A stretch of DNA of 64,000 nt, taken from a virus. Under the pieces are notes generated by a model. It saw only the letters and a list, made by a program, of their open reading frames with translations, ran no database searches and had not been told where the DNA came from. Within the stretch, counting starts at the first letter, position 1, and the number at the start of each line of letters is the position of its first letter. Location of the stretch: positions 53,114 through 117,113 of IMG/VR virus record IMGVR_UViG_3300042914_003763; one strand, 5' to 3'. Below, piece after piece: positions 2,971 through 62,997 of this stretch. The translations under genes were made by a program, and so were the position numbers.

Positions 2971-4326
2971 GTGAATAACTTATTTCTAACTTCCAAGATT
3001 ACAGCATTAACAACAGGAGTAGTACAAACTTTAAGCAATCCTAATAAACATACAATAAAAGAATATAAGGAAACATTACGTAATCCTTGGTTACGTGCTT
3101 GCATTAGAATGAAAGGTCAACGTGCTGCTAACTCAATAGGAGAATACCAATTTAAGAATAAAGAGATAGAAAAATGGGTTAAAAATAACATTAACAACGT
3201 ACATGGTAACTTACGTGAATTAGTTGGTGTGTTAGCTAGTGGTGCTAGTGCATTTGGACATATGGCAGTTGAAACAGCTAAGGAACGTAAGTACGGTAAT
3301 AAGTTCCGTAAAATTGAATGGCACTTAGGTGGATTTAACGTATTAGATCCTGAACGAGTACATTATGCAGGTAACTATGGCGCAATTAGTTATGTTAAAT
3401 ATCAAGATGCTGTTAGAGAATTATATATACCTTATGAAAAATGTCTTCATATTACTAACTCAGGAACATTAGACTTTAATAATGGTAGTGTTTATGGCGA
3501 TCCAGATTGTGAAGTAGCTTTTCCTTACGTTAAGTTGTATAACATTATAATGTCTGAAATGGCTATTAGTGCTAAGACATTAGCTACTGGTATTATTGTT
3601 GGATTAGCAGATGGAGATAATACAGTTTACTTGTATGACAATAACGGTGATCCGTTACGTGATAGTAATAACAACTTAATCAAACGTAATGCAGTACAAC
3701 ATCTAGCTGATCAACTAAAACAACTAGAAAATAGAAGTCATATTGTTACGGATAAGAAAAATAGTGTTGTACCATTACAAATACCAGCAGGTGAACAGTT
3801 CTGGACAATTAGCGAGAATATGTTGAAACGTAATATATTTGCTAGTTGCGGTGTTCCAGTAATGGTATTTGATGAAGGTAGTAGTGCAATAGCTACTGCA
3901 ACATTAAGTGTGAAACAAGAAACAACTCTTGATACCACTATTGCTGATATAGTGGCGCAAATTAAGGATCAATTGATAGAAAAAGTTATACGTCCGTTGA
4001 TTGTTGCTAATTTTGGTAAGCAATCCGACTATGGCGATTTCGTAGTTCAAGCAAGCGCAGATCCAGCACAAGACAGCTTAATAACCAGCAACTTGATGAC
4101 AGCATTCAGTCTTGGATTGTTACAATCAAGTGATATTGATGCAGTTAACGCATTACGTGAAAGGTTGAAACTACCACCTGTAACACCCGAACAACAGCAA
4201 CAACAAGCACAAATGACAGCTATGTTACAACAATTGCAACAACCTGCTGCACCTGAAGCTGACCCTAATAGTCAACCTCAAGAACAACAGGATGAAAGTT
4301 ATGATCAGCAATATCTAGCAGCGTAA
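2971..4326 (+). CDS. Phage portal protein (DUF935/Mu gp29-like)
   Basis: 451 aa with portal-type segments GASAFGHMAVE, DPERVHY, YGDPDCE, NIFASCGVP and LIEKVIRPLIVANFG; Q/P-rich tail. Confidence 0.75.
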   Translation: MNNLFLTSKITALTTGVVQTLSNPNKHTIKEYKETLRNPWLRACIRMKGQRAANSIGEYQFKNKEIEKWVKNNINNVHGNLRELVGVLASGASAFGHMAVETAKERKYGNKFRKIEWHLGGFNVLDPERVHYAGNYGAISYVKYQDAVRELYIPYEKCLHITNSGTLDFNNGSVYGDPDCEVAFPYVKLYNIIMSEMAISAKTLATGIIVGLADGDNTVYLYDNNGDPLRDSNNNLIKRNAVQHLADQLKQLENRSHIVTDKKNSVVPLQIPAGEQFWTISENMLKRNIFASCGVPVMVFDEGSSAIATATLSVKQETTLDTTIADIVAQIKDQLIEKVIRPLIVANFGKQSDYGDFVVQASADPAQDSLITSNLMTAFSLGLLQSSDIDAVNALRERLKLPPVTPEQQQQQAQMTAMLQQLQQPAAPEADPNSQPQEQQDESYDQQYLAA

Positions 4327-19135: not shown

Positions 19136-19584
19136 TTAAATACCAGACTTAACAAGTTGTTCATTTTCTTCCCTTACCATTTTATTTCTATCTAGTAACA
19201 ATTGTTTTTCTTTTTCACTAGCTAATAATCTTTCTAATGATTCAATATAGTTCTTAGGTAATGTACTTTGTCTAGCTTGTTTAAACGCTTTAACTAAATT
19301 AACTTTTGCTTGTCTAACTTCAGGTGTGTTTTTGAGTAAGTTAATGAAAGATAAGATTGATCTTCATTCAGGTAATAATACGTTTCAGCTTGTCCGAAAC
19401 CTCCTTGTGGTAAGGATTTACCCTGCGCCGCTACCAGCGTCACCTCACCAAACACTTCAAAATCCGATTGATAAGTACATATTAAATCTTTCAGTGACTT
19501 ATGTTGAATACCAAGTTCCTCAGCAATTAATCTTAAATCAACCACTAAATTTGAATTAATCAACTGTACTGTTAAATTACTCAT
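19136..19584 (-). pseudogene. Rha-family regulator, frameshifted in an A5 run
   Basis: Rha N-terminus (VVDLRLIAEELGIQHK, YYLNEDQ); adding one A at 19329-19333 restores KNTPEVRQAKVNLVKAF...LVKSGI*. Confidence 0.75.
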
Positions 19585-49708: not shown

Positions 49709-50560
49709 TTACGATATCCAATTTAAGTTAGTAACCTTACAACCTGCGGAATTTTGATGTCCTCCCCCGCCTAATTGTTTAGCTAACACACTAACATCAA
49801 AGTTATGTGTTTTCTTATTAGACCTAAAGCTAATAAGATATTCATCTTTGTGTTTAACTATTGCAACTACGAATAACGTAGTAGGATTAGTATTGTAGAT
49901 GTAAGAACAAACATCGCTAACTAATCTACTATCTTCATAAGGTATTTCAACAACTAACACTTCGTAATCAATTACCTTACGCCACTCAGCAGTAGTAGCT
50001 ATTTCCTTAATACGATTACGCTTAGGTTGTAACAACTTAACACCTGTATGAACTAATAACTTAATTAGTTCATCTTGTGTTAATGGTTCTAGTACATCAT
50101 ACAAGGTGTATGACTTACGTAATGAACTAACACATTCGTGAATCTCTTCACTATAAGGTAGATCAAAGTTCCATAAGTCACGATCCTTAACATAGTTAAG
50201 GAACGCAGGTACTACTTCATTAGGAAAGAAATGTTTCCATGTTAAAGTTGCACCACACTCATTCATATCGAACTTAGCTAATATACGACCACTAAGATTA
50301 GATAAGTCATTCATTGCTGTCTCATGATGATCAATTACTATAACTTCACAACCATCATCAGCATATTTTTCTAACTGATTTGCAGGGAAAGAAAAGTCAA
50401 CTATCACTAACCTGGAGTTAGAAAAAGAGGGTGTGTCTCCATAACAACACCCTATTATTTCTGCATCTGGATAAACTTTAGCAGCTACCCATGATGCAGC
50501 AAATCCGTCAGGACAATCCGTAGTCGGATTAATCCTGTGATAAATAATTATAGTTTTCAT
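49709..50560 (-). CDS. DHH/DHHA1 phosphoesterase
   Basis: YH..DCPDG, IVDFS, IDHH, DRDLW, GGGGH..SAG. Confidence 0.9.
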   Translation of the reverse strand: MKTIIIYHRINPTTDCPDGFAASWVAAKVYPDAEIIGCCYGDTPSFSNSRLVIVDFSFPANQLEKYADDGCEVIVIDHHETAMNDLSNLSGRILAKFDMNECGATLTWKHFFPNEVVPAFLNYVKDRDLWNFDLPYSEEIHECVSSLRKSYTLYDVLEPLTQDELIKLLVHTGVKLLQPKRNRIKEIATTAEWRKVIDYEVLVVEIPYEDSRLVSDVCSYIYNTNPTTLFVVAIVKHKDEYLISFRSNKKTHNFDVSVLAKQLGGGGHQNSAGCKVTNLNWIS

Positions 50561-50875
50561 TTACTTTCTCACTAAAGTACAGGGTCGTCCTGTTGAGTGG
50601 AATGACGCTTTATACTCATCTAATTTTATATCCATACCTGCATCATACAAGGCATGAATAATCTGACTAATTGTTTGATGATTCTTACCTAAAGTGGAGG
50701 CTATTTCACGGTAAGTTAACATTTCATCTTGAATTAAACCTAATATCTCAATTACAGTTTTGATACTAGGCTTCAAGATTGGTAATAGCCATTCTTGTTC
50801 GCTATTAGTCAGTTCCATAAATTTAGTTATTTCAGGAGCTAACTCTTTAATCCTTTCTAAACTTTCGACGTTCAT
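50561..50875 (-). CDS. Helix-turn-helix DNA-binding protein
   Basis: LTYREIASTLGKNHQTISQIIHAL. Confidence 0.7.
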   Translation of the reverse strand: MNVESLERIKELAPEITKFMELTNSEQEWLLPILKPSIKTVIEILGLIQDEMLTYREIASTLGKNHQTISQIIHALYDAGMDIKLDEYKASFHSTGRPCTLVRK

Positions 50876-51114
50876 ACTGATACTGCTGCTATTAACTCAT
50901 CAATTGTTTCTATCTCACTATCGTTAGTGAAATAGTAAATATCTTCTATTAACTCAACATCAACACTAGATTTTAATTCCTGGTAAGTGAAGTTTACGTT
51001 CTTACTACCTTCAACACAGTACCAACTACCACCTTTCATCTTATCTTCATAAACTAATATGCTACATGGTGTATGAGAACTACCGTATGTACCGTTAATA
51101 ATATTTTCTCTCAT
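50872..51114 (-). CDS. Hypothetical protein
   Basis: GTYGS, WYCVEGS.NVN. Confidence 0.55.
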   Translation of the reverse strand: MRENIINGTYGSSHTPCSILVYEDKMKGGSWYCVEGSKNVNFTYQELKSSVDVELIEDIYYFTNDSEIETIDELIAAVSV

Positions 51115-51264
51115 TTAGTTCACCTACTTTCCAACCAGTAATCGGTTGAAATACGGACACTTAATCTTATCACAAAGATTAATGCTCATTTTCTATATCC
51201 AACAAAAAAATACACAGTAAATTACCCTTACTAACTGAATATATCAGTTTTCAGGGTAAATGAA

Positions 51265-51426
51265 TCAAGTTAGTACAAACATCTTATCAGGATGCACATA
51301 CACACCTGATGTTTCGTTTTTTAATTTTATATTAATTTTGTGTTTGGACACAAAGTTAACCTCTTCTATAGTTCTGTTGTTGATGCTATCACCAACTTTC
51401 AGTTTACTTGCCGGAACTGTTGTCAT
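51265..51426 (-). CDS. Small protein (53 aa), absent from the ORF track
   Basis: MTTVPASKLKVGD...; GAGG upstream. Confidence 0.5.
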   Translation of the reverse strand: MTTVPASKLKVGDSINNRTIEEVNFVSKHKINIKLKNETSGVYVHPDKMFVLT

Positions 51427-51547
51427 TTTTTTCATCATCCTCTTCTAAATCTTCAAGTACATCTTCATCTAAATCTGAAAAATAAAAATAATCTAAATAA
51501 GTTTCAGTTTCTTTATCTAACTCATCAGTTCTATCATTTTGAGTCAT
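51404..51547 (-). CDS. Very acidic 47-aa peptide, absent from the ORF track
   Basis: MTQNDRTDELDKETETYLDYFYFSDLDEDVLEDLEEDDEKNDNSSGK*. Confidence 0.5.
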   Translation of the reverse strand: MTQNDRTDELDKETETYLDYFYFSDLDEDVLEDLEEDDEKNDNSSGK

Positions 51548-51802
51548 ATTAATTAATCCCTACATTTACCGTATATTAAACAATCCCCTGTTTGTTCATC
51601 TCTAGCATTAGTAGCTAGAGTTAATGAGTTAGTAGTTAACAGGATTAACAGCGTTATTGCAATTAACTTAATCATAATACTGTTACCGTACCGTAATTAG
51701 CTATTTATATTGTAACTTAAGTGCATACCATAGTTAGTTACAACGTTAAGTTAATTAAACATAAAAAAGCTAGTAACACTTTTGTATCACTAGCTAATCT
51801 TG

Positions 51803-51827
51803 TTATCGCATTACGGTAATGCGATAA
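51803..51827. repeat. Perfect 12-bp inverted repeat
   Basis: TTATCGCATTAC-G-GTAATGCGATAA. Confidence 0.85.
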
Positions 51828-51851
51828 AATAAATAATAATAAATAGGTATA

Positions 51852-51886
51852 AGAAAAGCCACTAACGGAATACCTTGTTAGTGGCT
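51852..51886 (-). terminator. Intrinsic terminator
   Basis: AGCCACTAAC/GTTAGTGGCT stem plus U-tract. Confidence 0.75.
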
Positions 51887-51905
51887 GAAATATATTCAAA
51901 CGTTC

Positions 51906-51932
51906 AGACAGTTTAACGACGTATCCAGGTCG
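51906..51932 (-). ncRNA. H-type pseudoknot motif, copy 1
   Basis: CGAC-CUGGAUAC-GUCG-UUAAAC-UGUCU. Confidence 0.6.
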
Positions 51933-51940
51933 GAATTTTA

Positions 51941-52246
51941 TTATTTTACATCATCCCAAGACACTGATCCTGGTTCTTTCATTGCTTCTTCTGCTGCTTG
52001 AATATCAAGCTGATCTTCAAGAGTTGAATTAAGGTGGTAACTATTACCCCCTTTACACTTAATTACTTGATTTTTTTCACGATCAATTGTATATGATGAC
52101 ACATCAACTTCCATCACAGTAGCTTTAATTAAGTTACCATTTATTTCTAATGGTAGTAAATCGGCGGCTGTTTGATTAGCTTCCTGCATGGATTCGTAGA
52201 TACCAGCAATATTGATACCATGACCTACAACAAATAAACTAGACAT
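51941..52246 (-). CDS. Hypothetical protein with antitoxin-like C-terminus
   Basis: LEDQLDIQAAEEAMKEPGSVSWDDVK. Confidence 0.5.
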   Translation of the reverse strand: MSSLFVVGHGINIAGIYESMQEANQTAADLLPLEINGNLIKATVMEVDVSSYTIDREKNQVIKCKGGNSYHLNSTLEDQLDIQAAEEAMKEPGSVSWDDVK

Positions 52247-52327
52247 ACTTATATCTCTCCTCTAGAATGATAATGTTAACACACTTGTTTTATTTATTGA
52301 CCACTACAAGTAAACGGTCATGAAAAA

Positions 52328-52729
52328 CTATAATCCAAGTTCTTTTAAGTCTTCAGGATCATCATCAAAATGATACTCTCTTTCGAGTATCATAGCTACT
52401 AACTTGTTGTCTCTACTCAGCTTCATTTGAAGAAGCGGTAGAATAAATTGTTCTGCTTCATCGGGTGAGAATTCACCTGATCTTTTGAACCTGTCATCGG
52501 GTGTAAAAGATTGCAAACCAAATATAGCTTGCCCTAACTCTCCATCACCTTGAAGAGCTATACTGTAAGAAATCAGGTGTTCACGAATTGTAGGCGATCC
52601 ACCAAATCCACCTGTCACCAAGTAGGTGAAAGTAGCGGTAAACTCTCTTTGCTTTATTAAATTTGATGGAAAGTGTACAGCAGATCGGCGCAATCCTTCT
52701 TTCCACACTGAACTAAAATCTAATTCCAT
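52328..52729 (-). CDS. Hypothetical protein
   Basis: 133 aa ORF. Confidence 0.55.
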   Translation of the reverse strand: MELDFSSVWKEGLRRSAVHFPSNLIKQREFTATFTYLVTGGFGGSPTIREHLISYSIALQGDGELGQAIFGLQSFTPDDRFKRSGEFSPDEAEQFILPLLQMKLSRDNKLVAMILEREYHFDDDPEDLKELGL

Positions 52730-52759
52730 TTCTTTTTCTACCTTTTGTAAATGTATATA

Positions 52760-53225
52760 TTTCTAGAAGTTGATAAAGGTACTTCTAGCATAAACCGTTA
52801 TTGAAGGCAATAACCTGTAACTTATCTTTGCTTCCTTATAGTTACAGTTTTGTTACTTGTCTTGGTGTAACAATAACCTAGACTTGTTGCTAACTACGTT
52901 AGTAGCGTACTGTGAGAAATACAACCTCTACAGTAATAAGTTTAGTTAGGATATTTCTAATCACATTTGTCGTGATTCTTATTGCAATAAGAAGAAATAT
53001 CAATTAGCATTTGTCGCTACTTAACTAATTAACTTACCGTAAGTCATTCCTACATACATTAGTGTCATCTAATTAGTTACTGTAGTTATAACTAATAGAT
53101 CAAGTGACTAGAACACAACTAATCTAGTATCATAAGTTGAAGAAGATAACACCTCTAATGTAATAACGTAATTAACTTAGTTTTACATCTAGCATTACTG
53201 TAACTAGATAACCTTATCACAGGTA
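52760..53225. other. ORF-free array of tandem and nested hairpins (candidate ncRNA or origin)
   Basis: Many adjacent inverted repeats, e.g. CTAGAAGT/ACTTCTAG, GTTATTG/CAATAAC, CTGTAACT/AGTTACAG, GATATTTCT/AGAAATATC. Confidence 0.5.
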
Positions 53226-53230
53226 GAAAA

Positions 53231-54583
53231 TCAGATATCTTGACGGTAAATGCCACCAGTGGCAGCACTTATCATCTTGAGATGATCGTTACTGCTATTT
53301 AGGATGAATGAGTGCAACTTAGCACCCTTTAGATCCCCAGGTTTAACACTAGTTGCATCGTCTTCACCATCGTTTACAACAATGATGTGACGATCTCTTT
53401 TGGAAATAGCACCTTTATTTTCAAGTGCTATCTTATCAAACTCCTCTAACGCTTCTTGAATAGCGTTAGCTACATCAGTTCCACTCTTGTCGAAAGAGTG
53501 TTTTATGATCTTTTTTCTATAAAATTTATCTATATTACCATCATCAGGCAATAGATAGAATTTATGACAAGAACTCTCAAAGAAAGAGAAATTTAACCAA
53601 CATTCACCACGTTTAACACGCTTGAGAATGTTGTGTATTATACCTATAGCTTTCTTTGACTTGCTATTAGTCTGCATACTACCTGAATCATCAACAATAA
53701 GCGTAACAAACGGCATTTTAAACTCTCGTTTGTATTTTTCATCAACTCTTGCTTCATTGTTGATGACACGATATGCCATCATTGGTAATGGGTTTACAAG
53801 TTCTAATGGGTTTATGCGATGAAACTCATCAAAACCCTTAATACTACGCGCTATTTTAACATCACCTTGATCATCCTTGATTAATTTAGATGAAGGCTTA
53901 GTTTTTATGGCTGATATCTTGTCCATTTCGTTACTAGCACGAAGAATATCGCGCATAACATCGGACTTAACAAGACTTTCAATGTTATAATTATCATCAT
54001 CTTTTAGATCAAGAAGTTCTTTATCTTCTTGATCTAATTTTTCAACAAGTTCAATCGCTTCGTTGATTTTTTTAGCTTCTTCTCTAACCTTCCCTTCAAA
54101 GGTAGAAAAAATGGGAATGGTTGGTGAACCACTACTATCATTACTACCAGATGATGAATTAGCTTCTTCACCGAGATATTTAATTGTATTAATTGCTTTT
54201 TCAAGTGGGGTAGTACCTGGAATACCATCCAGGTTTAATGATTGAAGAAAGGTTTGGATATTTTGATGATAGCCAACATCTTTTTCTACCCATGCTTGTT
54301 TAGCGATTGAGTAATTTTTTGTATAATTAGAATCGAAATCGTTTGGGTTATCGGGTAATGTGTAGTCACCATCATAATCCGGTTCTAACACTTTATTAAA
54401 GTTGTTAGAACAGTGATCAAAAATATTACTAGCGGATACAAATGATCCACCACTAGCGATATTACACAAATCTTCTACTAAGTCAGGAGCATATGCCTCT
54501 ACTCCTAATTCTTTAGCTAATTTTCTTACTTCATCAGCAGATGGATGAAGGTAACTAGGTGAAGGGATAGTTCTAATCGTCAT
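53231..54583 (-). CDS. VWA-domain protein (ViaA/CoxE-like)
   Basis: MIDAS DDSGSM, SGTD, VVNDGED. Confidence 0.85.
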   Translation of the reverse strand: MTIRTIPSPSYLHPSADEVRKLAKELGVEAYAPDLVEDLCNIASGGSFVSASNIFDHCSNNFNKVLEPDYDGDYTLPDNPNDFDSNYTKNYSIAKQAWVEKDVGYHQNIQTFLQSLNLDGIPGTTPLEKAINTIKYLGEEANSSSGSNDSSGSPTIPIFSTFEGKVREEAKKINEAIELVEKLDQEDKELLDLKDDDNYNIESLVKSDVMRDILRASNEMDKISAIKTKPSSKLIKDDQGDVKIARSIKGFDEFHRINPLELVNPLPMMAYRVINNEARVDEKYKREFKMPFVTLIVDDSGSMQTNSKSKKAIGIIHNILKRVKRGECWLNFSFFESSCHKFYLLPDDGNIDKFYRKKIIKHSFDKSGTDVANAIQEALEEFDKIALENKGAISKRDRHIIVVNDGEDDATSVKPGDLKGAKLHSFILNSSNDHLKMISAATGGIYRQDI

Positions 54584-54673
54584 ATTTGACTATTTTTTTT
54601 TGGTTATTAATGAGATAGAAAAATAATAGTAGTTAAGTTAGTATGTTGCGATTAACTTAACTACTAATTAATA

Positions 54674-55855
54674 TTAGAGCGATTCAGATCCACACATGAT
54701 TGAATTATCACGTTCATTAGCAGCCTTAACTACGAGATCCGCGCATTTCTTCTTAACGTTGTTAATACGTGATGTTAACGAGTCTGGATATTTACCGCTA
54801 TTACTAATCTCTGTCTCTAATGATTTAGCAAGTTTCCATATTATAGCGGCGTTAACTAATTTTCCCTTCTCAGGGTTATTAAGTTTATGGAAACCTCTAT
54901 CAATTCTTCTTTCAAATTCGTTTATTTTTTCTACCTGAATATCGTATTGTTTCTTGCGTTCCATCTCTTCTTCTAGACCTGCTAGTAGAGATGTATCCCA
55001 ATACGATAAGTAGTTCAAAATTCGTAAATCTTCCATATCAGCAGTATTAGCATCACGAAGATAAGCTGCTGATTTGATAAGTTTTTGTGTCCATTTATAT
55101 GCTCTAGGAGATATAATACTCCCGTTTTCTCCTGATTTTTGTGCTAGATGTTGGAGTAGACCTTTAATGGAACTACTTAGGATAATACTTGACACATCTT
55201 CACGCATCATATCAATTTCCGTTATATCAATAGCAGATACGTCATGTTTAACTAGTTCATCATCATCGAGAAGAGCATAATCTGCTGCATCATGACTATC
55301 CCAGCCATGATTAACAACCAGAAATCGTTGTAAAAAGGCATCGTATGAATTTTGTTGAATCTCAGGTAGAGATTCTTTTAGTTCAATTGGGTTAAGATTT
55401 GTAGCAGCAACTAATACTTTGTTAATTGACTTTATTTCTTCACCACTAATATTTAACATACGATTAGTGATGACAGCTTTCAATACAGATAACGCGTTAA
55501 AACTCGCATCTAACGCTTCTTCAAAGAAAAACTTGTGTCGTTGTAATACAGAAGCAGCAATATTATAATGTGCTTCTGTTAGGTCGTATTTTTCACCCTT
55601 CAAAGTACGACCAATTGCGCCACCTTTTATGTGACTAGCTGATGTTTCAGGGTCACATTCAAGCATACCCTGAGATCCTTTTATTGCTTTAAACGAACTA
55701 AGAATCATTTCAGTCTTACCATAACCACCTCTACCGTAGTAGAGGATTGGAATACCGGAAAGAATAGATAAAGATAAGGAATCAGAAAAACTATCGAATT
55801 TAACAAAACCAGAGTTAGCAAGTTGAGCGTTGATAGAAGATTTGATTGTAGACAT
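54674..55855 (-). CDS. MoxR/RavA-family AAA+ ATPase
   Basis: GRGGYGKT, FFEE, AATN, AFLQRF, ISPRA; start re-set to MSTIK. Confidence 0.82.
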   Translation of the reverse strand: MSTIKSSINAQLANSGFVKFDSFSDSLSLSILSGIPILYYGRGGYGKTEMILSSFKAIKGSQGMLECDPETSASHIKGGAIGRTLKGEKYDLTEAHYNIAASVLQRHKFFFEEALDASFNALSVLKAVITNRMLNISGEEIKSINKVLVAATNLNPIELKESLPEIQQNSYDAFLQRFLVVNHGWDSHDAADYALLDDDELVKHDVSAIDITEIDMMREDVSSIILSSSIKGLLQHLAQKSGENGSIISPRAYKWTQKLIKSAAYLRDANTADMEDLRILNYLSYWDTSLLAGLEEEMERKKQYDIQVEKINEFERRIDRGFHKLNNPEKGKLVNAAIIWKLAKSLETEISNSGKYPDSLTSRINNVKKKCADLVVKAANERDNSIMCGSESL

Positions 55856-55886
55856 GACTCGTACTCCAATATGATATGTGGTTAAC

Positions 55887-55915
55887 AAGTTAGTTTAATG
55901 ACATAACTTAGGTCA
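55887..55915 (-). ncRNA. H-type pseudoknot motif, copy 2
   Basis: UGAC-CUAAGUUAU-GUCA-UUAAAC-UAACUU. Confidence 0.6.
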
Positions 55916-55922
55916 ATATAAT

Positions 55923-57845
55923 TTACAGTTTGCTTATTGATGTAAGAACTGTGAACTCTCTACCACCGTTACGTGGTTTAATAGTACGTGGTATTCCTAC
56001 CACTTCATCATCTATGTTAAGCGAACTAACAACTGAATTACGTTCAGCTGTTACGATAACTCCTGTTTCTATACACCTAAAGTTATTACCATGACGACTA
56101 CCGCCTATGTAACGATACTTACGCATGGTAGTTGCTAAACAAACTTTATAGTTTTCAGGATTACTATCCTTACTAACTATATTGTTAGTTGAAATTAGTT
56201 GGGTTAACTTAGTAACGTTATCCTTAATTTGAAATAACTTCTTACTAATTAACTCATGTTGATAATCACGTCTATCTTGACTGTTATTAATGAATCTCTT
56301 ATATAAGTTCATTAACGTTGCAATATCGCAGTCCTTAACTGGGTTAGTTGCAACACTAATATCACCTTTAAAGAAATTACCTACTCCTAATAATGAAGTT
56401 GCTAGGATAGTTGTACTAACACAACCTAACTCAAGAGACTTAACTAGCATCACAGCTAAGTTAGTATCAAGAGGTAATTTACTAACTTCGATACCAAAGT
56501 TAGTTATAGCACCTAACTCATCAATACAACCCCATTTAGTTAATAACTCAATTGCATTATTAACTGCATCTTCTGTAGGTTGATGCACGAAAGATAAGTC
56601 TCTAAGTGATTTATTTATTTTTCTAACTGACAACTCTAAAGACTCAACATTAATTCTTTTTATTTCAGGGATAGGGAACTTGATACGAGAACTATAGCTA
56701 GTATCACTAACCAGATAATACGTACCATCACAAGTACGTCCAGTTCTTCCCTTACGCTGATCAAGTTCGGCTTGACTACATAATGTAGGTGATATTTTCC
56801 ATATACCATCTACAGATGATACTTCTTTCTTGATACCGTAATCAACCACAACTTGCAGGTTTTCTGGTGTTACACCTGCGGCACATATGTCTGTGCTTAA
56901 AATTATTTCGCTAACACCATGATCCTTGATGGTGTCATGGATATTATCAACCTCACTATGACAGTGAGTGATACGAACATTTATTTTTTCTACCTCGAAG
57001 TAGGACTTCAATTCATGATCTAATTCAATAATTTCTCCCTTACCAGCTAGGAATATCAGAATACGATCACCATTACTAACGTGCTTTTTCAGAGATAGAA
57101 ATAACTCTTTATTATTACCAAGATGATGTTCAACTATGGGACATTTCACACCACCCATGTGGATGTTACCAATTGAATAGCCATCAAAATAGCTATTAAT
57201 TTCATCGTCATTGAGAGTTGCACTAACAATCAATACGCGGGTTTTCCAACCATTAGCTAAACGTTGTTTAATTAAAGCAAGACATAATTCTTGCTGTTGA
57301 CTAAACTCATGACATTCATCTATTGCCACAAAGTCCGGTTCAAATGTCGGATCTAATAACTGATTTACTAATACACCTGTAGTAACAAACATTCCAGGAG
57401 CATTAGTATTGAACGACGCATTACCGTTGCGATAACCAACTTTACACTGCTTACTACAATACTCGTGAAGAGAATAAGTATTTATAATTCTTGGTTGTGC
57501 GGATATTATATTATAACCAGCGTTAACTAATTGGATCATTGAATTAGTTGACTTACCTGATCCAGTATCACCACGCAGAATAGTTATCTGGTTTTGCATG
57601 ACTTTAGATACAAAATCAGATAATGGGTTGCTAACGCTTAACAATTTTTCTATCGCTATTTGTTGTTGTTGTAATTTAACCGTTAATCTTTTTTCGAGAT
57701 CGATCAACTTAACAATATATTTCTTTTTACCTAGACCGATCAACTTGAATAAACTGCTAATTTCACCTTTGATACGACGAATGCTAACTACTAATTCATT
57801 ATTAGAAGAATTAACGGAAACTTGATTTAAAGATAATGCTTGCAT
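55923..57845 (-). CDS. DEAH/RHA (HrpA/HrpB-like) RNA helicase
   Basis: GDTGSGKST, QPR, DECHE, SAT, FLAG, QRKGRTGR, HA2-like region. Confidence 0.9.
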   Translation of the reverse strand: MQALSLNQVSVNSSNNELVVSIRRIKGEISSLFKLIGLGKKKYIVKLIDLEKRLTVKLQQQQIAIEKLLSVSNPLSDFVSKVMQNQITILRGDTGSGKSTNSMIQLVNAGYNIISAQPRIINTYSLHEYCSKQCKVGYRNGNASFNTNAPGMFVTTGVLVNQLLDPTFEPDFVAIDECHEFSQQQELCLALIKQRLANGWKTRVLIVSATLNDDEINSYFDGYSIGNIHMGGVKCPIVEHHLGNNKELFLSLKKHVSNGDRILIFLAGKGEIIELDHELKSYFEVEKINVRITHCHSEVDNIHDTIKDHGVSEIILSTDICAAGVTPENLQVVVDYGIKKEVSSVDGIWKISPTLCSQAELDQRKGRTGRTCDGTYYLVSDTSYSSRIKFPIPEIKRINVESLELSVRKINKSLRDLSFVHQPTEDAVNNAIELLTKWGCIDELGAITNFGIEVSKLPLDTNLAVMLVKSLELGCVSTTILATSLLGVGNFFKGDISVATNPVKDCDIATLMNLYKRFINNSQDRRDYQHELISKKLFQIKDNVTKLTQLISTNNIVSKDSNPENYKVCLATTMRKYRYIGGSRHGNNFRCIETGVIVTAERNSVVSSLNIDDEVVGIPRTIKPRNGGREFTVLTSISKL

Positions 57846-58029
57846 GACTCGAAACTCCTACTTGGTTATGTTAATGTCGGTTAGAAAATGAACACTTGTT
57901 ATATCAATAAAAAACCTATTGTTGCTACTAACAATAACAACAATAGGTGATATAACCAAGTCTGGTTAATTGTTAGTTAACCAGCAGCATCTATCAAATA
58001 CATAACACTTGATAGATGCAACTGAATAA

Positions 58030-58224
58030 CTAATTTCTGAAGTATCTTTTCAGATACTTTTCAATCTTTAAATAACTGACATTAGGATCAGCTTTTAAAG
58101 ATTGATAATGTTCTACTGGTACATGGCATACTAAAACCACATTACCAATAGAACCTAATATAGTTAATGATGGGTAAGAGTTAGGATCGAAATTATCACT
58201 AACTCTCATGATTATGTGTGGCAT
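58030..58224 (-). CDS. Small protein (weak subtilisin-propeptide/I9-like pattern)
   Basis: SLKADPNVSYL. Confidence 0.4.
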   Translation of the reverse strand: MPHIIMRVSDNFDPNSYPSLTILGSIGNVVLVCHVPVEHYQSLKADPNVSYLKIEKYLKRYFRN

Positions 58225-58735
58225 TATTGCTATCTAAGCTATGATCTGGAAGTGGTTTCTTATTCCACTTTGTATTTACACTTTCACCACTGTTACGATC
58301 TATTAGAACCACTTCTACATTATCGTTATCAGTTGTATCAATTTCGATTTGTAGTTTGTTTATGGTGTTGTTGTAGATAGCTATTTTTTGATTACTACTC
58401 TTTTCATCACCAAACCAATACAGTTCAGGATTTAAAACATATCCTCTAGCTCGTTTACAACCATAAGGATATTTAAGAATATAATTTTTATCTACTAATT
58501 TTTTAATAGCAGCTTTAATATTACTTTCATTGAGATTAAAATATTTAGCTAACTTTTTAATAACAGAAGTTGACACATAACCCTCATTGAATTTAACTTC
58601 TAACTGAATATAGTTAAATACTTTTACCCATAAAGGATAATCAGGATCGTCATGTATTCTTAATAATGCACGTTTTCTTGTCTTGAGAAAGACATTAAGA
58701 TCGTCACTTTCTCTCATATTGGAATTATTTGTCAT
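58199..58735 (-). CDS. Winged-HTH protein, RepL-like
   Basis: LAKYFNLNESNIKAAIKKLVDKNYI, YVLNPELYWFG; start re-set to MTNN. Confidence 0.6.
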   Translation of the reverse strand: MTNNSNMRESDDLNVFLKTRKRALLRIHDDPDYPLWVKVFNYIQLEVKFNEGYVSTSVIKKLAKYFNLNESNIKAAIKKLVDKNYILKYPYGCKRARGYVLNPELYWFGDEKSSNQKIAIYNNTINKLQIEIDTTDNDNVEVVLIDRNSGESVNTKWNKKPLPDHSLDSNNATHNHES

Positions 58736-58768
58736 AATGGTTAAAGGTAAACGTCTATAACCATTATA

Positions 58769-58816
58769 ATAAGTACGAACCATTAGTACCACTTAGTACG
58801 AACTGTTCGTACTTAT
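58769..58816. promoter_or_regulatory. Direct and inverted AGTACGAAC repeats (operator/iteron-like)
   Basis: AGTACGAAC at 58772 and 58795; palindrome AGTACGAAC-T-GTTCGTACT at 58795-58813; beside a - strand TATAAT. Confidence 0.6.
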
Positions 58817-59017
58817 TTTACTTTAAACAAGTAGTAAATACTGTAAATCAACTACGTTACTTCTTTTATATCTTTTAACGTAGTGATCAATTAATTCTCC
58901 ATTACTTATAAATTAGTAATGATAACATTTTTTGTTTTTTTTTTCAAAGTAATAATAGTTTTAACAAAAAAAGTTACCCATACTTGCAGATACAGGTAAC
59001 TAATTCACACAAAGAAT

Positions 59018-59043
59018 AGCAGTTTAACGACGTGCTTAGGTCA
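59018..59043 (-). ncRNA. H-type pseudoknot motif, copy 3
   Basis: UGAC-CUAAGCAC-GUCG-UUAAAC-UGCU. Confidence 0.6.
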
Positions 59044-59048
59044 AGATG

Positions 59049-59312
59049 CTATTTTTGGTTGTTTTTTATTTCTAAGTAAGCAGTACGGGACATGAACCCG
59101 TACTCTGTTTTTATTTCATCGGAAAGTGGAACACGGATTAACCGTGTGTCAGGATCGGCATAGTCAGCATTAGGACGTAATTGTCCTAATGTCTGTAGAT
59201 CCCAAGAACGGGATCTACCTACAGACATAAGTTCACCATTTAAGGATATGGCGTATCCGAAATTTTGTTTTATTTCTTCTTCTCTAAATTTATGTGTCTT
59301 TGTTTTTGACAT
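59049..59312 (-). CDS. Hypothetical protein downstream of the hammerhead
   Basis: 87 aa, AGGAG RBS. Confidence 0.6.
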   Translation of the reverse strand: MSKTKTHKFREEEIKQNFGYAISLNGELMSVGRSRSWDLQTLGQLRPNADYADPDTRLIRVPLSDEIKTEYGFMSRTAYLEIKNNQK

Positions 59313-59330
59313 CTTTTTCTCCTTTAGTTT

Positions 59331-59389
59331 GTCTCATCAGTGCATAGGTAACTAGCCTATACAGACAGGGTTAATAACCCTGTTTCGAC
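59331..59389 (-). ncRNA. Type II hammerhead ribozyme
   Basis: GUC-GAAA-CAGGG(loop)CCCUG-UC/-UGUAUAGG(loop)CCUAUGCA-CUGAUGA-GAC: full catalytic core and three stems. Confidence 0.9.
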
Positions 59390-59698
59390 TTAATAACAAG
59401 AATAAGCTAATTCCTCTATTAAGACTTCATGATCTTCGCAGTATGCAATTGCATCTATGAGATATTGACGTTTTAATATTGACTCATAACTCCATTCGGT
59501 TATGTTCTTTAAATCACTTATCGTCTTACAACATTTAAATGTTGTATATATTCCCTGTTTAATCCATTCTTGATCGGTTAAGACCACTAGAATAGTAAAT
59601 TTCCGATCATATAATTTTATTAACTCACAATCGGAAACTTTATCAAATACTTCTAATAGTTGATCTGAGTTGATAACTGTTTTAAGTAGAGTAGTCAT
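59390..59698 (-). CDS. Hypothetical protein
   Basis: 102 aa; its RBS region contains GGAGATAGAAAAAAA. Confidence 0.55.
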   Translation of the reverse strand: MTTLLKTVINSDQLLEVFDKVSDCELIKLYDRKFTILVVLTDQEWIKQGIYTTFKCCKTISDLKNITEWSYESILKRQYLIDAIAYCEDHEVLIEELAYSCY

Positions 59699-60017
59699 TT
59701 TTTTTCTATCTCCAGTAATTGAATAAACATGACAATCCTATTGCAATACGGTACATGAGGTATTGCAACACTGTTAGTAATTAACTAGCAGCAAAGTGTA
59801 ACTAACTAATTACGTTATGTAAGTAAGTTAGTTACACTTAACTGGTATTTAATTTTTTGGTTATTGTAGTACGTTAGTTGTACTACTTCTTTAACGTCTT
59901 AACCTTACATTATATAAGTAACAAGACGTGATCTATTGCAACAAAAAAGCTACCTATAAGTTAATATAGGTAGCTTAGTTGTATGATCTTTTTTTTTTGA
60001 TTAAGTAACTAAGGTAG

Positions 60018-61100
60018 TTACCTACTCACCCCTGTTTGACGGTACAAGTTAAACGGTGTACCGACATCAGGTAATCTAGTTACCTTAGTTACGGTAACTG
60101 GTTTAATTACCTTAACTATTGATTGTACTTGTTTAGTTGTTGTAGTAGGTTTAGTTGTTGTTGGTTTAGTCTTACTAACCTTACTACATATGGTAATTTT
60201 ATTTTCTTGTTGTGTTAGCTGTTTATCTACAGCTAACGTTAAGTTATTAACACTTACGACATATTTTTGATTAATATTATTTACAACTTGGAATTTATCA
60301 TATGTAATTAGCTTAACTACCTTAACAAGATGTTTGTTATGTGGTTTATCTAGGTTAGGTGTAAACCAACATATGTCATCTATATTAAACAACTTCTCTT
60401 CATAATAGCTAAAGCTACTATGAGAGCTTTCAACTTTGATGTAGTCTGTTTCTGATAGCTTACTTGGTTTTATCTTTTCTACTTGTTTACGAGAGATTTT
60501 ATCTCTCTTATTCATTCTGATTATTTCAGTACGTCTAAGACCAGGTACTTTTTCATAAGTACCTACGAAGTCTTTTACACCCTCTATACGTTGCAAGAGA
60601 GGTAGAAAAACAGAGTTAAATATTTCTTCTCCAGAGAAGAAATCAGTACCTTGAATAGTACCGATCTCGATAAACACATAAGTGTTATATGACTGATCTT
60701 GTTTGTTGTTTATCAAGTCATACTCTCTAGGGAAACCTAGATCGAGAATATAATCACTTAATTTAAAATTATGTGTAATATAACCTGCTTCAACTAGGTC
60801 TTTTTTAGTATCTATTGCATTATTATTAATAATCTTATTTATTTTTTCTATGACTAACATCTCTTGACCATTATCGGTATGAAGTACATACCAAGATGAG
60901 GGTAAGTCTCTAGTGTTAGTAACTATAGTTGTATTTTCTGTAATGTTGTTAGTCATATGATGTTTCCAGATTAATTTTTGTAATGTTACATGAGGTAACA
61001 ATGTGTTTAGTTTATTGAATATATTAATTTTTTTTTCTAATGCAAGCGAAATTAACTCAGTGTGTGGCATTAGAAATAAACTTGTTTTTGTTATTTGCAT
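60018..61100 (-). CDS. Hypothetical protein with T/K-rich tail
   Basis: 360 aa; possible N-terminal HeH-like helices; TKPTTT repeat. Confidence 0.6.
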   Translation of the reverse strand: MQITKTSLFLMPHTELISLALEKKINIFNKLNTLLPHVTLQKLIWKHHMTNNITENTTIVTNTRDLPSSWYVLHTDNGQEMLVIEKINKIINNNAIDTKKDLVEAGYITHNFKLSDYILDLGFPREYDLINNKQDQSYNTYVFIEIGTIQGTDFFSGEEIFNSVFLPLLQRIEGVKDFVGTYEKVPGLRRTEIIRMNKRDKISRKQVEKIKPSKLSETDYIKVESSHSSFSYYEEKLFNIDDICWFTPNLDKPHNKHLVKVVKLITYDKFQVVNNINQKYVVSVNNLTLAVDKQLTQQENKITICSKVSKTKPTTTKPTTTTKQVQSIVKVIKPVTVTKVTRLPDVGTPFNLYRQTGVSR

Positions 61101-61197
61101 AAAAAAAGACTGTTATTGTAACAGTCTGGATATTGTATATAAGCATAAAAAAAACTAGTAACTAAGTTAAGTTACTAGTTCGTTGGTTATGGAGTGT

Positions 61198-62997
61198 TTA
61201 TTCTATAAGTCTATAAGGATACGTATCCTTATAGTCGTAACTAACGTTACCCTTACTCGATTGTGGGATAACGTTTATCCCTAACAGTTGTTTCCAGTTA
61301 ACAGTTATCCTACTACAGAATATTGGGTTAAGCGTCACTATTCCGTGTAGCGTTAGTAGTTGTTTGATCTCTGGTAGATCATTAACTTGATTTTTATTAC
61401 TTATGTAAGTAATACATCCTTTATGGATGTATATGATACCTAAGTAGTGTACTACATGATTAGTACACTGTAATCCTAGTCTACCCAATACTTTACTTTG
61501 CGGGATCTTGTGTTCTTTAAGGAACACTATTAGATCCCGGTTAACTTCCCTATATATAACGTCTTGTTTGTGACGTATAGAATTTATTTGTTTGGATCTA
61601 TGCTGATGATCATAATATATATAATCATCATGATAATTATCAAAACATAATTTTTCAGTGTAACACAGTGACAGATCACCGTGTTTGTTTGTTTGTTTGC
61701 TTAATTTCTCATATACTAATCTGCTACCTAGCAGATCAGATAATGCTGTTAAGCTTAAACACATATCACTGAGATATGTTCTTAGTGATAGATCAGACGA
61801 TGGTATTTTACTCGTTACGTCACTCTTTGATCTTTTACTTAATATATTATTTTGTTTAACTTTAGCACCCGTAGATCGAGTGATTATGATATCTTGTATT
61901 CTTTTATGATCCTGTTCTACACAGGTGTTGTAGTCCCAACTTGTGTTTATAATTCCGTTGAATATGTTTAGATCCGGGATCATTATGATCCTATTTTCTA
62001 ATGGATCGAGTTGTAAACTTATACAACTCATCAGATCCGCGTGAAGCGTATCAACCCGGATCTGTTTAATAAACTCATAATATGAGTCATCTAAAGATTG
62101 TAGTATGTTAAATGCAATTAACAATGGTGATTTGAGTATTTTTACATACTCACCGCTATCTTGTATCAAGTACCCTATTAAGGAATATAAAACATCATGA
62201 TTTATGCTTTCAAAATATTTATTACTACGCTTATACATTTGGTTAAGTTGTTTGAAACTTAACTTAGTAACATTCTCTTTAATACTACTAATCAAAGAAA
62301 ACGTGTTTGGATCATATTCTATCTTCCAGATACTTTTAGGGTTATTATTATATTGTTCCGAAATTAAATTAAGTAAAATATGATCTTCACAGTCATATCT
62401 TACAGTTATTTTTTGTTTATTATATTCACTTTGTAATTCATCTGGTATATCTATAGTTATTTTTTCTATCTCGAAAGATAGTAAGCCACGTAGTTTAATA
62501 CCTGTAGGATTATCTGGTATTGAGATAATGCAACGATTAACCCAGTAGTCTATACCTTGGAAACTGTTACTTCTTACTGGTGGATTCTCTTTAATTCTTT
62601 GTAATATTGATTGTTTGTAAGTAGGCTTAATAAATTTGTTTTTATTTTTTTTGTTTATATTATTTTCTTTATTGTTACGTTCTATACTGACAAGATCAAC
62701 ATTATAATAATCGTTAATCCGTGATCCGGTATGATCTGATGTTAAATCATCAGATGATACCTGATCATCTATACTGAAAGGTTGATTTAACCTTTTTTGA
62801 TCTTGTAATCTTACGTCATTATTAATATCTAAAACTGTATGTTTATTTTTATTATTAGTATTAGTTGCATCCTCTTGAGTTAATGCAGCATTAGAAATTA
62901 AAAGTTCAATTATCTCTTGTGATTTAAGATTTGCTTTTATACCGTGTTTTTTAGCAAGTGATTGTAACTCACTTCTAGATAAAGTTGTGTATTTCAT
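61198..62997 (-). CDS. Large protein with N-terminal SAP/HeH/Rho_N nucleic-acid-binding motif
   Basis: LSRSELQSLAKKHGIKANLKSQEIIELL. Confidence 0.65.
   Translation of the reverse strand: MKYTTLSRSELQSLAKKHGIKANLKSQEIIELLISNAALTQEDATNTNNKNKHTVLDINNDVRLQDQKRLNQPFSIDDQVSSDDLTSDHTGSRINDYYNVDLVSIERNNKENNINKKNKNKFIKPTYKQSILQRIKENPPVRSNSFQGIDYWVNRCIISIPDNPTGIKLRGLLSFEIEKITIDIPDELQSEYNKQKITVRYDCEDHILLNLISEQYNNNPKSIWKIEYDPNTFSLISSIKENVTKLSFKQLNQMYKRSNKYFESINHDVLYSLIGYLIQDSGEYVKILKSPLLIAFNILQSLDDSYYEFIKQIRVDTLHADLMSCISLQLDPLENRIIMIPDLNIFNGIINTSWDYNTCVEQDHKRIQDIIITRSTGAKVKQNNILSKRSKSDVTSKIPSSDLSLRTYLSDMCLSLTALSDLLGSRLVYEKLSKQTNKHGDLSLCYTEKLCFDNYHDDYIYYDHQHRSKQINSIRHKQDVIYREVNRDLIVFLKEHKIPQSKVLGRLGLQCTNHVVHYLGIIYIHKGCITYISNKNQVNDLPEIKQLLTLHGIVTLNPIFCSRITVNWKQLLGINVIPQSSKGNVSYDYKDTYPYRLIE

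Follow-up and report, generated by a model that had tools for sequence, protein, structure and literature searches.

A small covarying RNA pseudoknot just downstream of stop codons: a widespread phage family with a possible role at the 3' ends of genes

Small RNA structures placed shortly after a stop codon are known from intrinsic (Rho-independent) terminators, which begin a few bases past the stop on the sense strand and whose duplex closes right before a U-tract, and from repetitive extragenic palindromic (REP) elements and other 3' stabilisers of bacterial operons, which are short repeated structures after stops and between cistrons. REP elements are thought to shield the upstream message. 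In the present study, we analyzed a stretch of 64,000 nucleotides (nt; hereafter the window), the right-hand 64 kilobases (kb) of the 117,113-base-pair (bp) virus record IMGVR_UViG_3300042914_003763 of IMG/VR (direct terminal repeats; 32% G+C), and describe a pseudoknot of about 27 nt (hereafter the knot) that occurs there in three copies, PK1 to PK3, and that has relatives in many other phages. The knot shares with intrinsic terminators its position and strand and, in 70 of 133 copies, the U-tract right behind the closing duplex. However, in place of the stable GC-rich hairpin of an intrinsic terminator it forms a pseudoknot, whose two stems are short and AU-rich and whose loops are invariant; about half of the knots, including PK1 and PK2, have no U-tract, and termination is a prediction. 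REP elements are simple palindromes confined to a species, whereas the same core of the knot is found in many phyla.

In its fold, the knot is similar to the compact H-type recoding pseudoknots of luteoviruses and retroviruses, which likewise combine a short loop 1 and a single junction nucleotide with a loop 3 that is rich in A and lies across stem 1, at a spacing of 5 to 9 nt from the codon in the A site; unlike them, it is an element of a DNA phage behind a true stop codon, without a slippery site or an open extension. Lambda nut and HK022 put are, like the knot, cis-acting elements of the nascent RNA found after the end of a gene and ahead of terminators, but differ from it in structure and size, and the knot has no boxA or boxB. 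The preQ1-I riboswitch aptamer is also a tiny pseudoknot of the H type, with a 3' loop rich in A; in the knot, however, stem 1 is fixed and stem 2 is free in sequence, there is no match to Rfam, and no queuosine-related genes are nearby. GP20-b RNA (RF03003) is found, as is the knot, in the intergenic region ahead of phage GP20 or scaffold genes, but the knot is outside the span of that model (in locus L185 the model covers 3206-3146 and the knot ends at 3224) and also occurs in unrelated contexts. Finally, PMC10879173 describes theta ribozymes, which are like those of hepatitis delta virus (HDV), directly at the 3' ends of transfer RNAs (tRNAs) in gut phages; these, too, are pseudoknotted phage RNAs able to adjoin tRNA genes. 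HDV-like ribozymes are defined, partly following PMC10879173, by a nested double pseudoknot with helices P1, P1.1, P2 and P3 and a catalytic C in J4/2, whereas the knot has two helices only, lacks the extra HDV helices, and gives no hit to HDV-type models of Rfam.

The three copies in the window are on the - strand and have the form YGAC-CU-X-N-GUCR-UUAAAC-X', in which YGAC and GUCR form stem 1 (S1), X and X' form stem 2 (S2), and CU, the junction nucleotide and UUAAAC are loops 1, 2 and 3 (L1, L2 and L3). PK1 (51906-51932) has S1 CGAC/GUCG, L1 CU, S2 GGAUA/UGUCU with two G.U pairs, L2 C and L3 UUAAAC, and scores 38.6 bits with the covariance model of the knot. PK2 (55887-55915; 38.7 bits) has S1 UGAC/GUCA, L1 CU, S2 AAGUUA/UAACUU, L2 U and L3 UUAAAC, and PK3 (59018-59043; 42.7 bits) has S1 UGAC/GUCG with a U.G closing pair, L1 CU plus A, S2 AGCA/UGCU, L2 C and L3 UUAAAC. 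The first-pass annotation of this DNA had pointed out these sites, and all three are present with the letters it gave: X and X' vary jointly among them, with GACCU, GUC and UUAAAC invariant. The pattern GACCT-N4-9-GTCR-TTAAAC matches the window three times, against no match in each of 100 shuffles, and the whole record three times, always on the - strand, against none in a backwards control. No further copies were found in the 117-kb genome by looser regular expressions or by the covariance model at E<=10. A chance origin of the three copies is excluded.

To collect homologues, only GACCU, GUCR and UUAAAC were fixed, and X and X' were left free. A scan of IMG/VR gave at least 116 loci, and the removal of six matches at locus ends and five duplicates left 108 distinct matches, including the three of the window; all figures for viral matches refer to these IMG/VR matches listed. 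In 65 of the 108, X and X' form at least 4 bp in register, and in 51 they form at least 5 bp. When the tails were permuted among the sequences (1000 times), the corresponding means were 22.6 (maximum 32) and 12.9 (maximum 20); tails taken from 20 nt further on gave 3 and 2, and the upstream segment used as tail gave 0 and 0. A single scan of bacterial and archaeal genome contigs found 125 matches in 120 loci, with pairing of at least 4 bp in 79 and of at least 5 bp in 62.

Covariation was analyzed in the complete set of 67 viral matches whose loop has 6 nt, which gave 65 distinct rows and was unselected for pairing. In this set, 92.1% of the cells are paired against 80.8% after shuffling, and the covariation score is 0.397 against 0.187; neither value was reached in any of 500 shuffles. 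Sliding the 3' partners by one to three columns left 21-59% paired. In S2, both partners change in each of the five pairs, and covariation extends to the pair that closes S1 (C-G in 27, U-A in 18, U.G in 9 and unpaired in 11 of the 65 rows). A descriptor with a free L1 and a looser L3 found 131 hits, against 3 on the reversed sequence; L1 is CU in 129 of these, and L3 is UUAAAC with occasional variants in the extra copies (AUAAAC in three; CUAAAC, GUAAAC and five other forms in one each). The knot combines a fixed S1 of 3 to 4 bp (YGAC/GUCR), an S2 of 4 to 6 bp with free sequence, and the invariant loops CU and UUAAAC. Two helices, with the loop of the first pairing 3' of it, and covariation are the features of an H-type pseudoknot, and we regard it as nearly certain that these sequences represent a real, conserved family of RNA pseudoknots. 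The idea of the first-pass annotation that the compensatory changes among three copies reflect a real RNA structure is therefore strongly supported by homologues chosen without regard to pairing.

That annotation had also proposed building a covariance model and searching Rfam and phage genomes, and had made the novelty of the motif depend on Rfam. The homologues covary, as described above, and Rfam 15 has no match on the motif: nothing reached the gathering score in the window, nothing was found at E<=10 over 51700-59300 or in a 66-nt slice with PK2, and in 39 related loci no Rfam model fell on the knot. The literature searched holds no description of the knot, and among the papers listed for the motif letters these belonged to primers or small interfering RNAs. 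The supplements of the catalogues PMC5737381 and PMC10690425 contain thousands of unnamed candidate RNA motifs, and the knot may be present there without a name. The sole annotation met is a label in Staphylococcus phage phiJB, whose record marks 41 bp over the knot as 'putative promoter P5R'. The knot is a new and widespread family of phage RNA, present in no catalogue that could be searched here; it provides a new annotation feature for phage genomes, in one of which it is now labelled as a putative promoter, and the covariance model is ready for curation in the manner of Rfam.

The orientation of the knot is that of the surrounding genes. Among 111 copies, the closest gene upstream shares the strand of the knot in 82 and is opposite in 3, and the closest one downstream shares it in 75 and is opposite in 10; the knot lies on the sense strand and is transcribed with the genes. 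Because G.U pairs are frequent, this strand is the structured one, and, together with the sense orientation, this places the structure at the level of RNA. These data bear on the possibility that the knot is a DNA-level element, either a promoter, as the phiJB record has it, or a conserved linker for recombination between phage modules. In the Staphylococcus phages, the knot is indeed a conserved island between unrelated flanks, and 13 of the 30 rows listed match in the gene end and the knot only. However, covariation on one strand with many G.U pairs, the strict sense orientation and the onset 5 nt after stop codons (see below) are not accounted for by a DNA element, and the spacing of the phiJB hexamers, by reading of the sequence, is unfit for sigma-70, which calls for -35 and -10 hexamers separated by 16-18 bp. 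Among 41 promoter-like matches in the region 50500-61500 of the window, none is on any of the three knots. We thus consider a DNA-level function very unlikely.

The position relative to the upstream stop codon is likewise constrained. In the window, where distances are counted between the end of the stop codon and the beginning of S1, PK1 follows the tandem TAA TAA stops (51938-51943, - strand) of a 101-amino-acid (aa) open reading frame (ORF; 51941-52246) by 8 and 5 nt, PK2 follows the TAA stop (55923-55925, - strand) of a DEAD/Helicase_C helicase gene (55923-57845) by 7 nt, and PK3 follows the TAG stop (59049-59051, - strand) of an 87-aa ORF (59049-59312) by 5 nt, in agreement with the 5-8 nt reported at first pass. 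For the family, only ORFs of 60 codons or more were considered, and the distance was taken between the end of the nearest one upstream and the beginning of S1. Among 135 copies, 8 are at 4 nt or less, 36 at 5-9 nt, 20 at 10-17 nt, 23 at 18-45 nt and 28 beyond 45 nt, and 20 have no ORF end within 200 nt upstream. The onset at 5 nt is sharp, with 12 copies at 5 nt and 9 at 6 nt, against one to three at each distance from 0 to 4 nt. In the class at 5-17 nt, the stop codon is TAA in 38 cases, TAG in 12 and TGA in 6; in the class at 18-45 nt, a terminator hairpin is often found in between. In PK3 (59018-59051, - strand), the stop-codon region UAGCA can pair with X' and one further base, and folding by energy shows this nested alternative to S2, which would be precluded by a ribosome standing on the stop codon.

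Both the type of pseudoknot and the spacer of 5-9 nt match those of recoding signals, and the first-pass annotation had listed stop-codon read-through among the possible functions, together with an antitermination site, an exonuclease block and a ligand- or protein-binding aptamer, which are considered below. Programmed read-through or frameshifting at the upstream stop is, however, contradicted by the sequences downstream and has next to no probability. In 50 cases, the median open extensions past the stop are 6, 7 and 4 codons for the three frames, and extensions of at least 40 codons are found in 4, 0 and 5 cases, respectively. PK1 follows tandem stops, the reading frame at PK2 meets a stop after 4 codons, and there is no conserved slippery heptamer. 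The read-through proposal is accordingly rejected, since the median in-frame extension is only 6 codons and PK1 has its second stop.

The U-tract found across the family, like the sharp onset at 5 nt and the recurrent position ahead of phage head-scaffold genes, was not visible to the first-pass annotation. Such a tract, defined by five or more U among 8 nt and a start 0-2 nt behind X', is present in the 70 copies mentioned above, against 52 of 472 random positions, and the profile of stop distances is the same with and without it. Of 133 copies, 10 have a canonical terminator whose end is no more than 14 nt upstream (4 of 472 random positions), and 8 have one that begins no more than 60 nt downstream (23 of 472 random positions). 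A possible likeness between the tail after the upstream terminator and the tail after the knot was rejected, the mean identity being 0.377 against 0.414 after permutation. In the window, a terminator-like 10-bp hairpin (51886-51857, with a 10-nt loop) and a T-rich tail, together 51851-51886 on the - strand, begin 19 nt after PK1, and a terminator-like 12-bp hairpin (59001-58972) and a T7 run, together 58965-59001 on the - strand, begin 16 nt after PK3, so that the earlier statement that two copies precede such hairpins holds; the first was missed by the terminator listing of the window, its loop being longer than 8 nt. With these hairpins 19 and 16 nt behind, PK1 and PK3 are within the 3' untranslated regions (UTRs) of the upstream ORFs. 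PK2 is between two cistrons, the helicase gene and the gene of an AAA ATPase, whose GGAG (55867-55864) and ATG (55855-55853; together 55853-55867, - strand) are 19 and 31 nt after the knot.

Because of the spacing, the U-tract in half of the family and the two window copies in 3' UTRs ahead of terminators, our preferred reading, held tentatively and at somewhat less than even confidence, is that the knot is a portable 3'-end module of the upstream cistron, either a terminator-like structure or a barrier to decay. The knot would occupy the first untranslated bases left free by a ribosome halted at the upstream stop, at least 5 nt on, and S2 would close as X' exits the polymerase. In the roughly one half of the family that has a U-tract immediately behind, the knot may replace the hairpin of a terminator. 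Where it stands before an ordinary terminator (PK1 and PK3) or between cistrons (PK2), the compact knot may be a barrier that keeps 3'-to-5' decay, including decay after a cut in the AU-rich spacer or in the next cistron, out of the upstream frame. When the A site holds a stop codon, the mRNA entry channel of the ribosome ends at about the first base 5-6 nt downstream, and the geometry of frameshift signals is the same. Given this geometry and the onset at 5 nt, the knot appears to be as near to the reading frame as it can be without being unwound in each round of translation. Termination and protection are what we infer from the structure, the strand, the placement and the association with U-tracts observed.

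Several points weigh against this reading. At a Staphylococcus aureus-type prophage (locus L005), no transcript ends were seen; 20 of the 24 runs listed hold the stretch (19 on record as RNA, from 10 studies), all kept as contigs, two contig runs span all 2 kb, and two raw runs gave 0 reads, the prophage being lacking. Among the copies of the window, a U-rich tail is present only at PK3 (5 U of 8), where an ordinary strong terminator is right behind; the knot is thus not needed as a terminator there. In the commonest context of the family, between a minor-head gene and a scaffold gene, termination at the knot would deprive the genes with the highest expression of their transcript unless the scaffold leader of about 60 nt had a promoter, and none of the sigma-70 type was seen in it. 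Seven of 145 copies are in tRNA arrays, four of the seven at 2-6 nt ahead of the next tRNA, and neither termination nor protection of an ORF applies to copies inside such arrays. The invariance of the loops across many phyla is not obviously required by a barrier or a terminator, and specific recognition fits it at least as well. Furthermore, nested folding of the 27-nt pieces gives an unremarkable -2.4 to -3.2 kcal/mol (z from +0.1 to -0.9); with z near 0, the structural case rests on covariation, not on energy.

A more specific version of the 3'-end module, which we consider doubtful, is a device gated by the ribosome, in which a pseudoknot of 27 nt, predicted to be of the triplex type with loop-3/stem-1 and loop-1/stem-2 triples, would take the place of the terminator hairpin. 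Its 5' strand would begin exactly where the ribosome on the stop codon ends. A ribosome following closely would keep S1 open and the polymerase would run on, and an untranslated transcript would fold the knot and then terminate or turn exonuclease-proof. The question raised is whether a pseudoknot can end or shield a bacterial message under the control of the terminating ribosome; if the gating version is true, no knot resistant to exonucleases would have been described in a bacterial virus before this one. As an explanation for the whole family, a block of ribonuclease J, an exonuclease that works 5' to 3', is unlikely, as TIGR00649 is above the cut-off in only one of five knot-bearing host genomes; at the cut-off it is absent from three Bacteroidota hosts, which are metagenome-assembled genomes (MAGs) and possibly incomplete.

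The order of stop, knot and terminator at PK1 and PK3 is also that of lambda nutR, where cro is followed by nutR and tR1, and one possible explanation is that the nascent knot binds the elongating polymerase, with or without a Nus-type factor, and alters pausing or termination, as in processive antitermination. The U-tract in 70 of 133 copies could then be a pause that gives time for binding, and loops invariant across phyla suit a universal partner such as RNA polymerase. A 360-aa ORF upstream of PK3 (60018-61100, - strand) shows a weak likeness to NusG-N, but its Pfam score of 21.4 bits is below the cut-off of 22.2. Moreover, the knot has no boxA or boxB and no put-like anatomy of two hairpins, a constitutive antiterminator acting in cis would render the strong terminators just behind it pointless, and the terminators that end within 14 nt upstream in 10 of 133 copies cannot be its target. 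We consider such a polymerase-directed element rather unlikely.

Specific recognition could also mean that the knot is an aptamer, whose partner would be either a small ligand or a conserved protein of host or phage, and, where a U-tract follows, a tiny riboswitch-like terminator dependent on the ligand. Small RNAs with letters invariant across many phyla usually do something precise. The unpaired letters of the knot are invariant (CU in 129 of 131 hits, UUAAAC nearly so) and the sequence of S2 is free, which is the usual signature of an aptamer; in size and topology it resembles the smallest riboswitch aptamers, and several genomes carry two or three copies, as a titrating or dosage-dependent site might. 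However, the neighbours (scaffold, primase, ATPase and helicase genes and tRNAs) have nothing in common that would suggest a ligand, L2 at the junction varies, and no riboswitch model of Rfam matches, even with the 66-nt slice at E<=10. An aptamer is thus a possibility to which we give little weight, comparable with that of a polymerase-directed element.

The neighbouring genes differ among carriers. In the commonest context given above, the two leading PHROG families downstream are both annotated as head scaffolding protein (9 of 45 proteins each), and the leading families upstream are minor head, head morphogenesis and portal proteins (5-7 of 51 proteins each). In other settings, as in the present phage, the knot is between early or replication genes. 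Searches in 19 loci detected GP20-b in two: it starts 17 nt after the knot in L185 (3146-3206, - strand), where the knot is therefore the end of one unit and the leader the beginning of another, and it also follows the knot in L231 (1720-1778, + strand). Many other scaffold-gene leaders behind the knot have a conserved hairpin that is below the gathering scores of GP20-a and GP20-b. In six loci (L006, L020, L081, L089, L092 and L107), a conserved hairpin with a G-rich and a C-rich strand is directly 3' of the knot and is followed by AAAACGGUG; this second stretch has no Rfam hit at the gathering score and may be part of a larger composite RNA.

A tRNA is found within 60 nt on the same strand in 7 of 145 copies (about 5%); in L053 and L167, a tRNA ends 1-2 nt ahead of the knot, and in L017, L053, L054 and L070, one begins 2-6 nt behind it. 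In L017 (346-1277, - strand), the knot is between two tRNA genes and immediately upstream of a full-length ROOL RNA (299 bits). Such positions are like those of phage ribozymes, and the invariant C that ends L3, just before S2, would fit a processing signal or a very small self-cleaving RNA that punctuates polycistronic transcripts at gene ends and in tRNA arrays. The knot has only two short helices, however, without equivalents of P3, P1.1 or P4, it matches no ribozyme family, and the great majority of the 145 copies are away from tRNAs. A processing function is therefore improbable in our estimation. The stretch before PK3 looked like the 3' half of a tRNA and proved to be only a hairpin; ARAGORN and Rfam detect no tRNA in the window.

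In locus L012 (2035-3100), three consecutive small genes (132, 83 and 86 aa) each have a near-identical knot 5-8 nt past the stop; L3 is AUAAAC in two of the copies, and the Shine-Dalgarno sequence of the next gene is about 12 nt after the first two. This arrangement, the GGAG 19 nt downstream of PK2, and the spacing of 5-9 nt (36 of 135 copies, with the onset at 5), which is that of recoding pseudoknots, would suit an insulator at the level of translation, in which the knot abuts the terminating ribosome, stops it or its subunits from sliding and keeps the next ribosome-binding site free of pairing with upstream sequence, thereby uncoupling the cistrons. PK1 and PK3, however, have terminators and not cistrons behind them, the copies in tRNA arrays meet no ribosome, and where a U-tract is present, 61 nt is the median distance to the next start codon preceded by a Shine-Dalgarno sequence. 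The probability of such an insulator is low, in our view similar to that of a processing signal. Tandem knots 8-20 nt apart with differing S2 sequences were also observed, in L133 (3307-3362, - strand) and L193 (1171-1250, + strand); the second copy in L193 has L3 CUAAAC and a 2-nt junction.

Carriers are many and unrelated, and include phages of Bacillota, Bacteroidota, Cyanobacteria, Planctomycetota, Chloroflexota, Saccharibacteria and others, and also prophages, with two to three copies in several genomes. Among cultured phages, the knot is found in phiETA, phiETA3, phiNM4, 96 and phiJB of S. aureus and in phi jlb1, KC5a and Lj771 of Lactobacillus, and the covariance model finds one copy each in phiETA, phiJB and phi jlb1; in the last, a phage of Lactobacillus gasseri, the copy is at 19168-19200. 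No knot was found in SPP1, T4, T5, SPO1 or K (0 of 5) or in 80alpha, and phi11 has only a fragment of 10.8 bits. The 78 genome loci with a pairing knot include none labelled Gamma- or Betaproteobacteria. In class samples searched with the model (47 candidates scored per genome), 1 of 151 Gammaproteobacteria and 2 of 151 Bacilli (centre genome included) had a match; the gammaproteobacterial one, on a 2.3-kb contig and with L3 CUAAAC, looks like a real knot. The cultured carriers of Staphylococcus and Lactobacillus make the knot directly testable. Its size equals that of the smallest riboswitch aptamers, and synthetic operons could take it up as a candidate part of 27 nt, either insulator or terminator.

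In the window, all ORFs of at least 90 aa between 43.8 and 63.7 kb are on the - strand, except two short ones inside - strand genes. A megablast of 9 kb against phages found no relative, and the helicase matched no related viral locus; in tblastn, the helicase had only remote matches with 25% identity. A sigma-70-like promoter match (10 of 12 with TG; 58919-58947, - strand), a match to the consensus only, is beyond the terminator of PK3 and ahead of the gene 58199-58792. Directly downstream of PK2 is a gene pair (53231-55855, - strand) for an AAA ATPase (AAA_lid_8; ATPase in PHROG) and a VWA-domain protein, and a DHH/DHHA1 phosphoesterase is encoded at 49709-50560.

At least one array of clustered regularly interspaced short palindromic repeats (CRISPR) already uses the knot as a spacer target. 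On a contig of a Veillonella MAG (L214, 1700-3485), an array with about 20 intact 35-nt repeats is 1.5 kb from cas1, the only cas gene recognised there, and one of its spacers is the knot motif. With the degenerate repeats at the low-coordinate end, the CRISPR RNA is probably antisense to the sense strand of the knot, an orientation that says nothing firm on RNA targeting.

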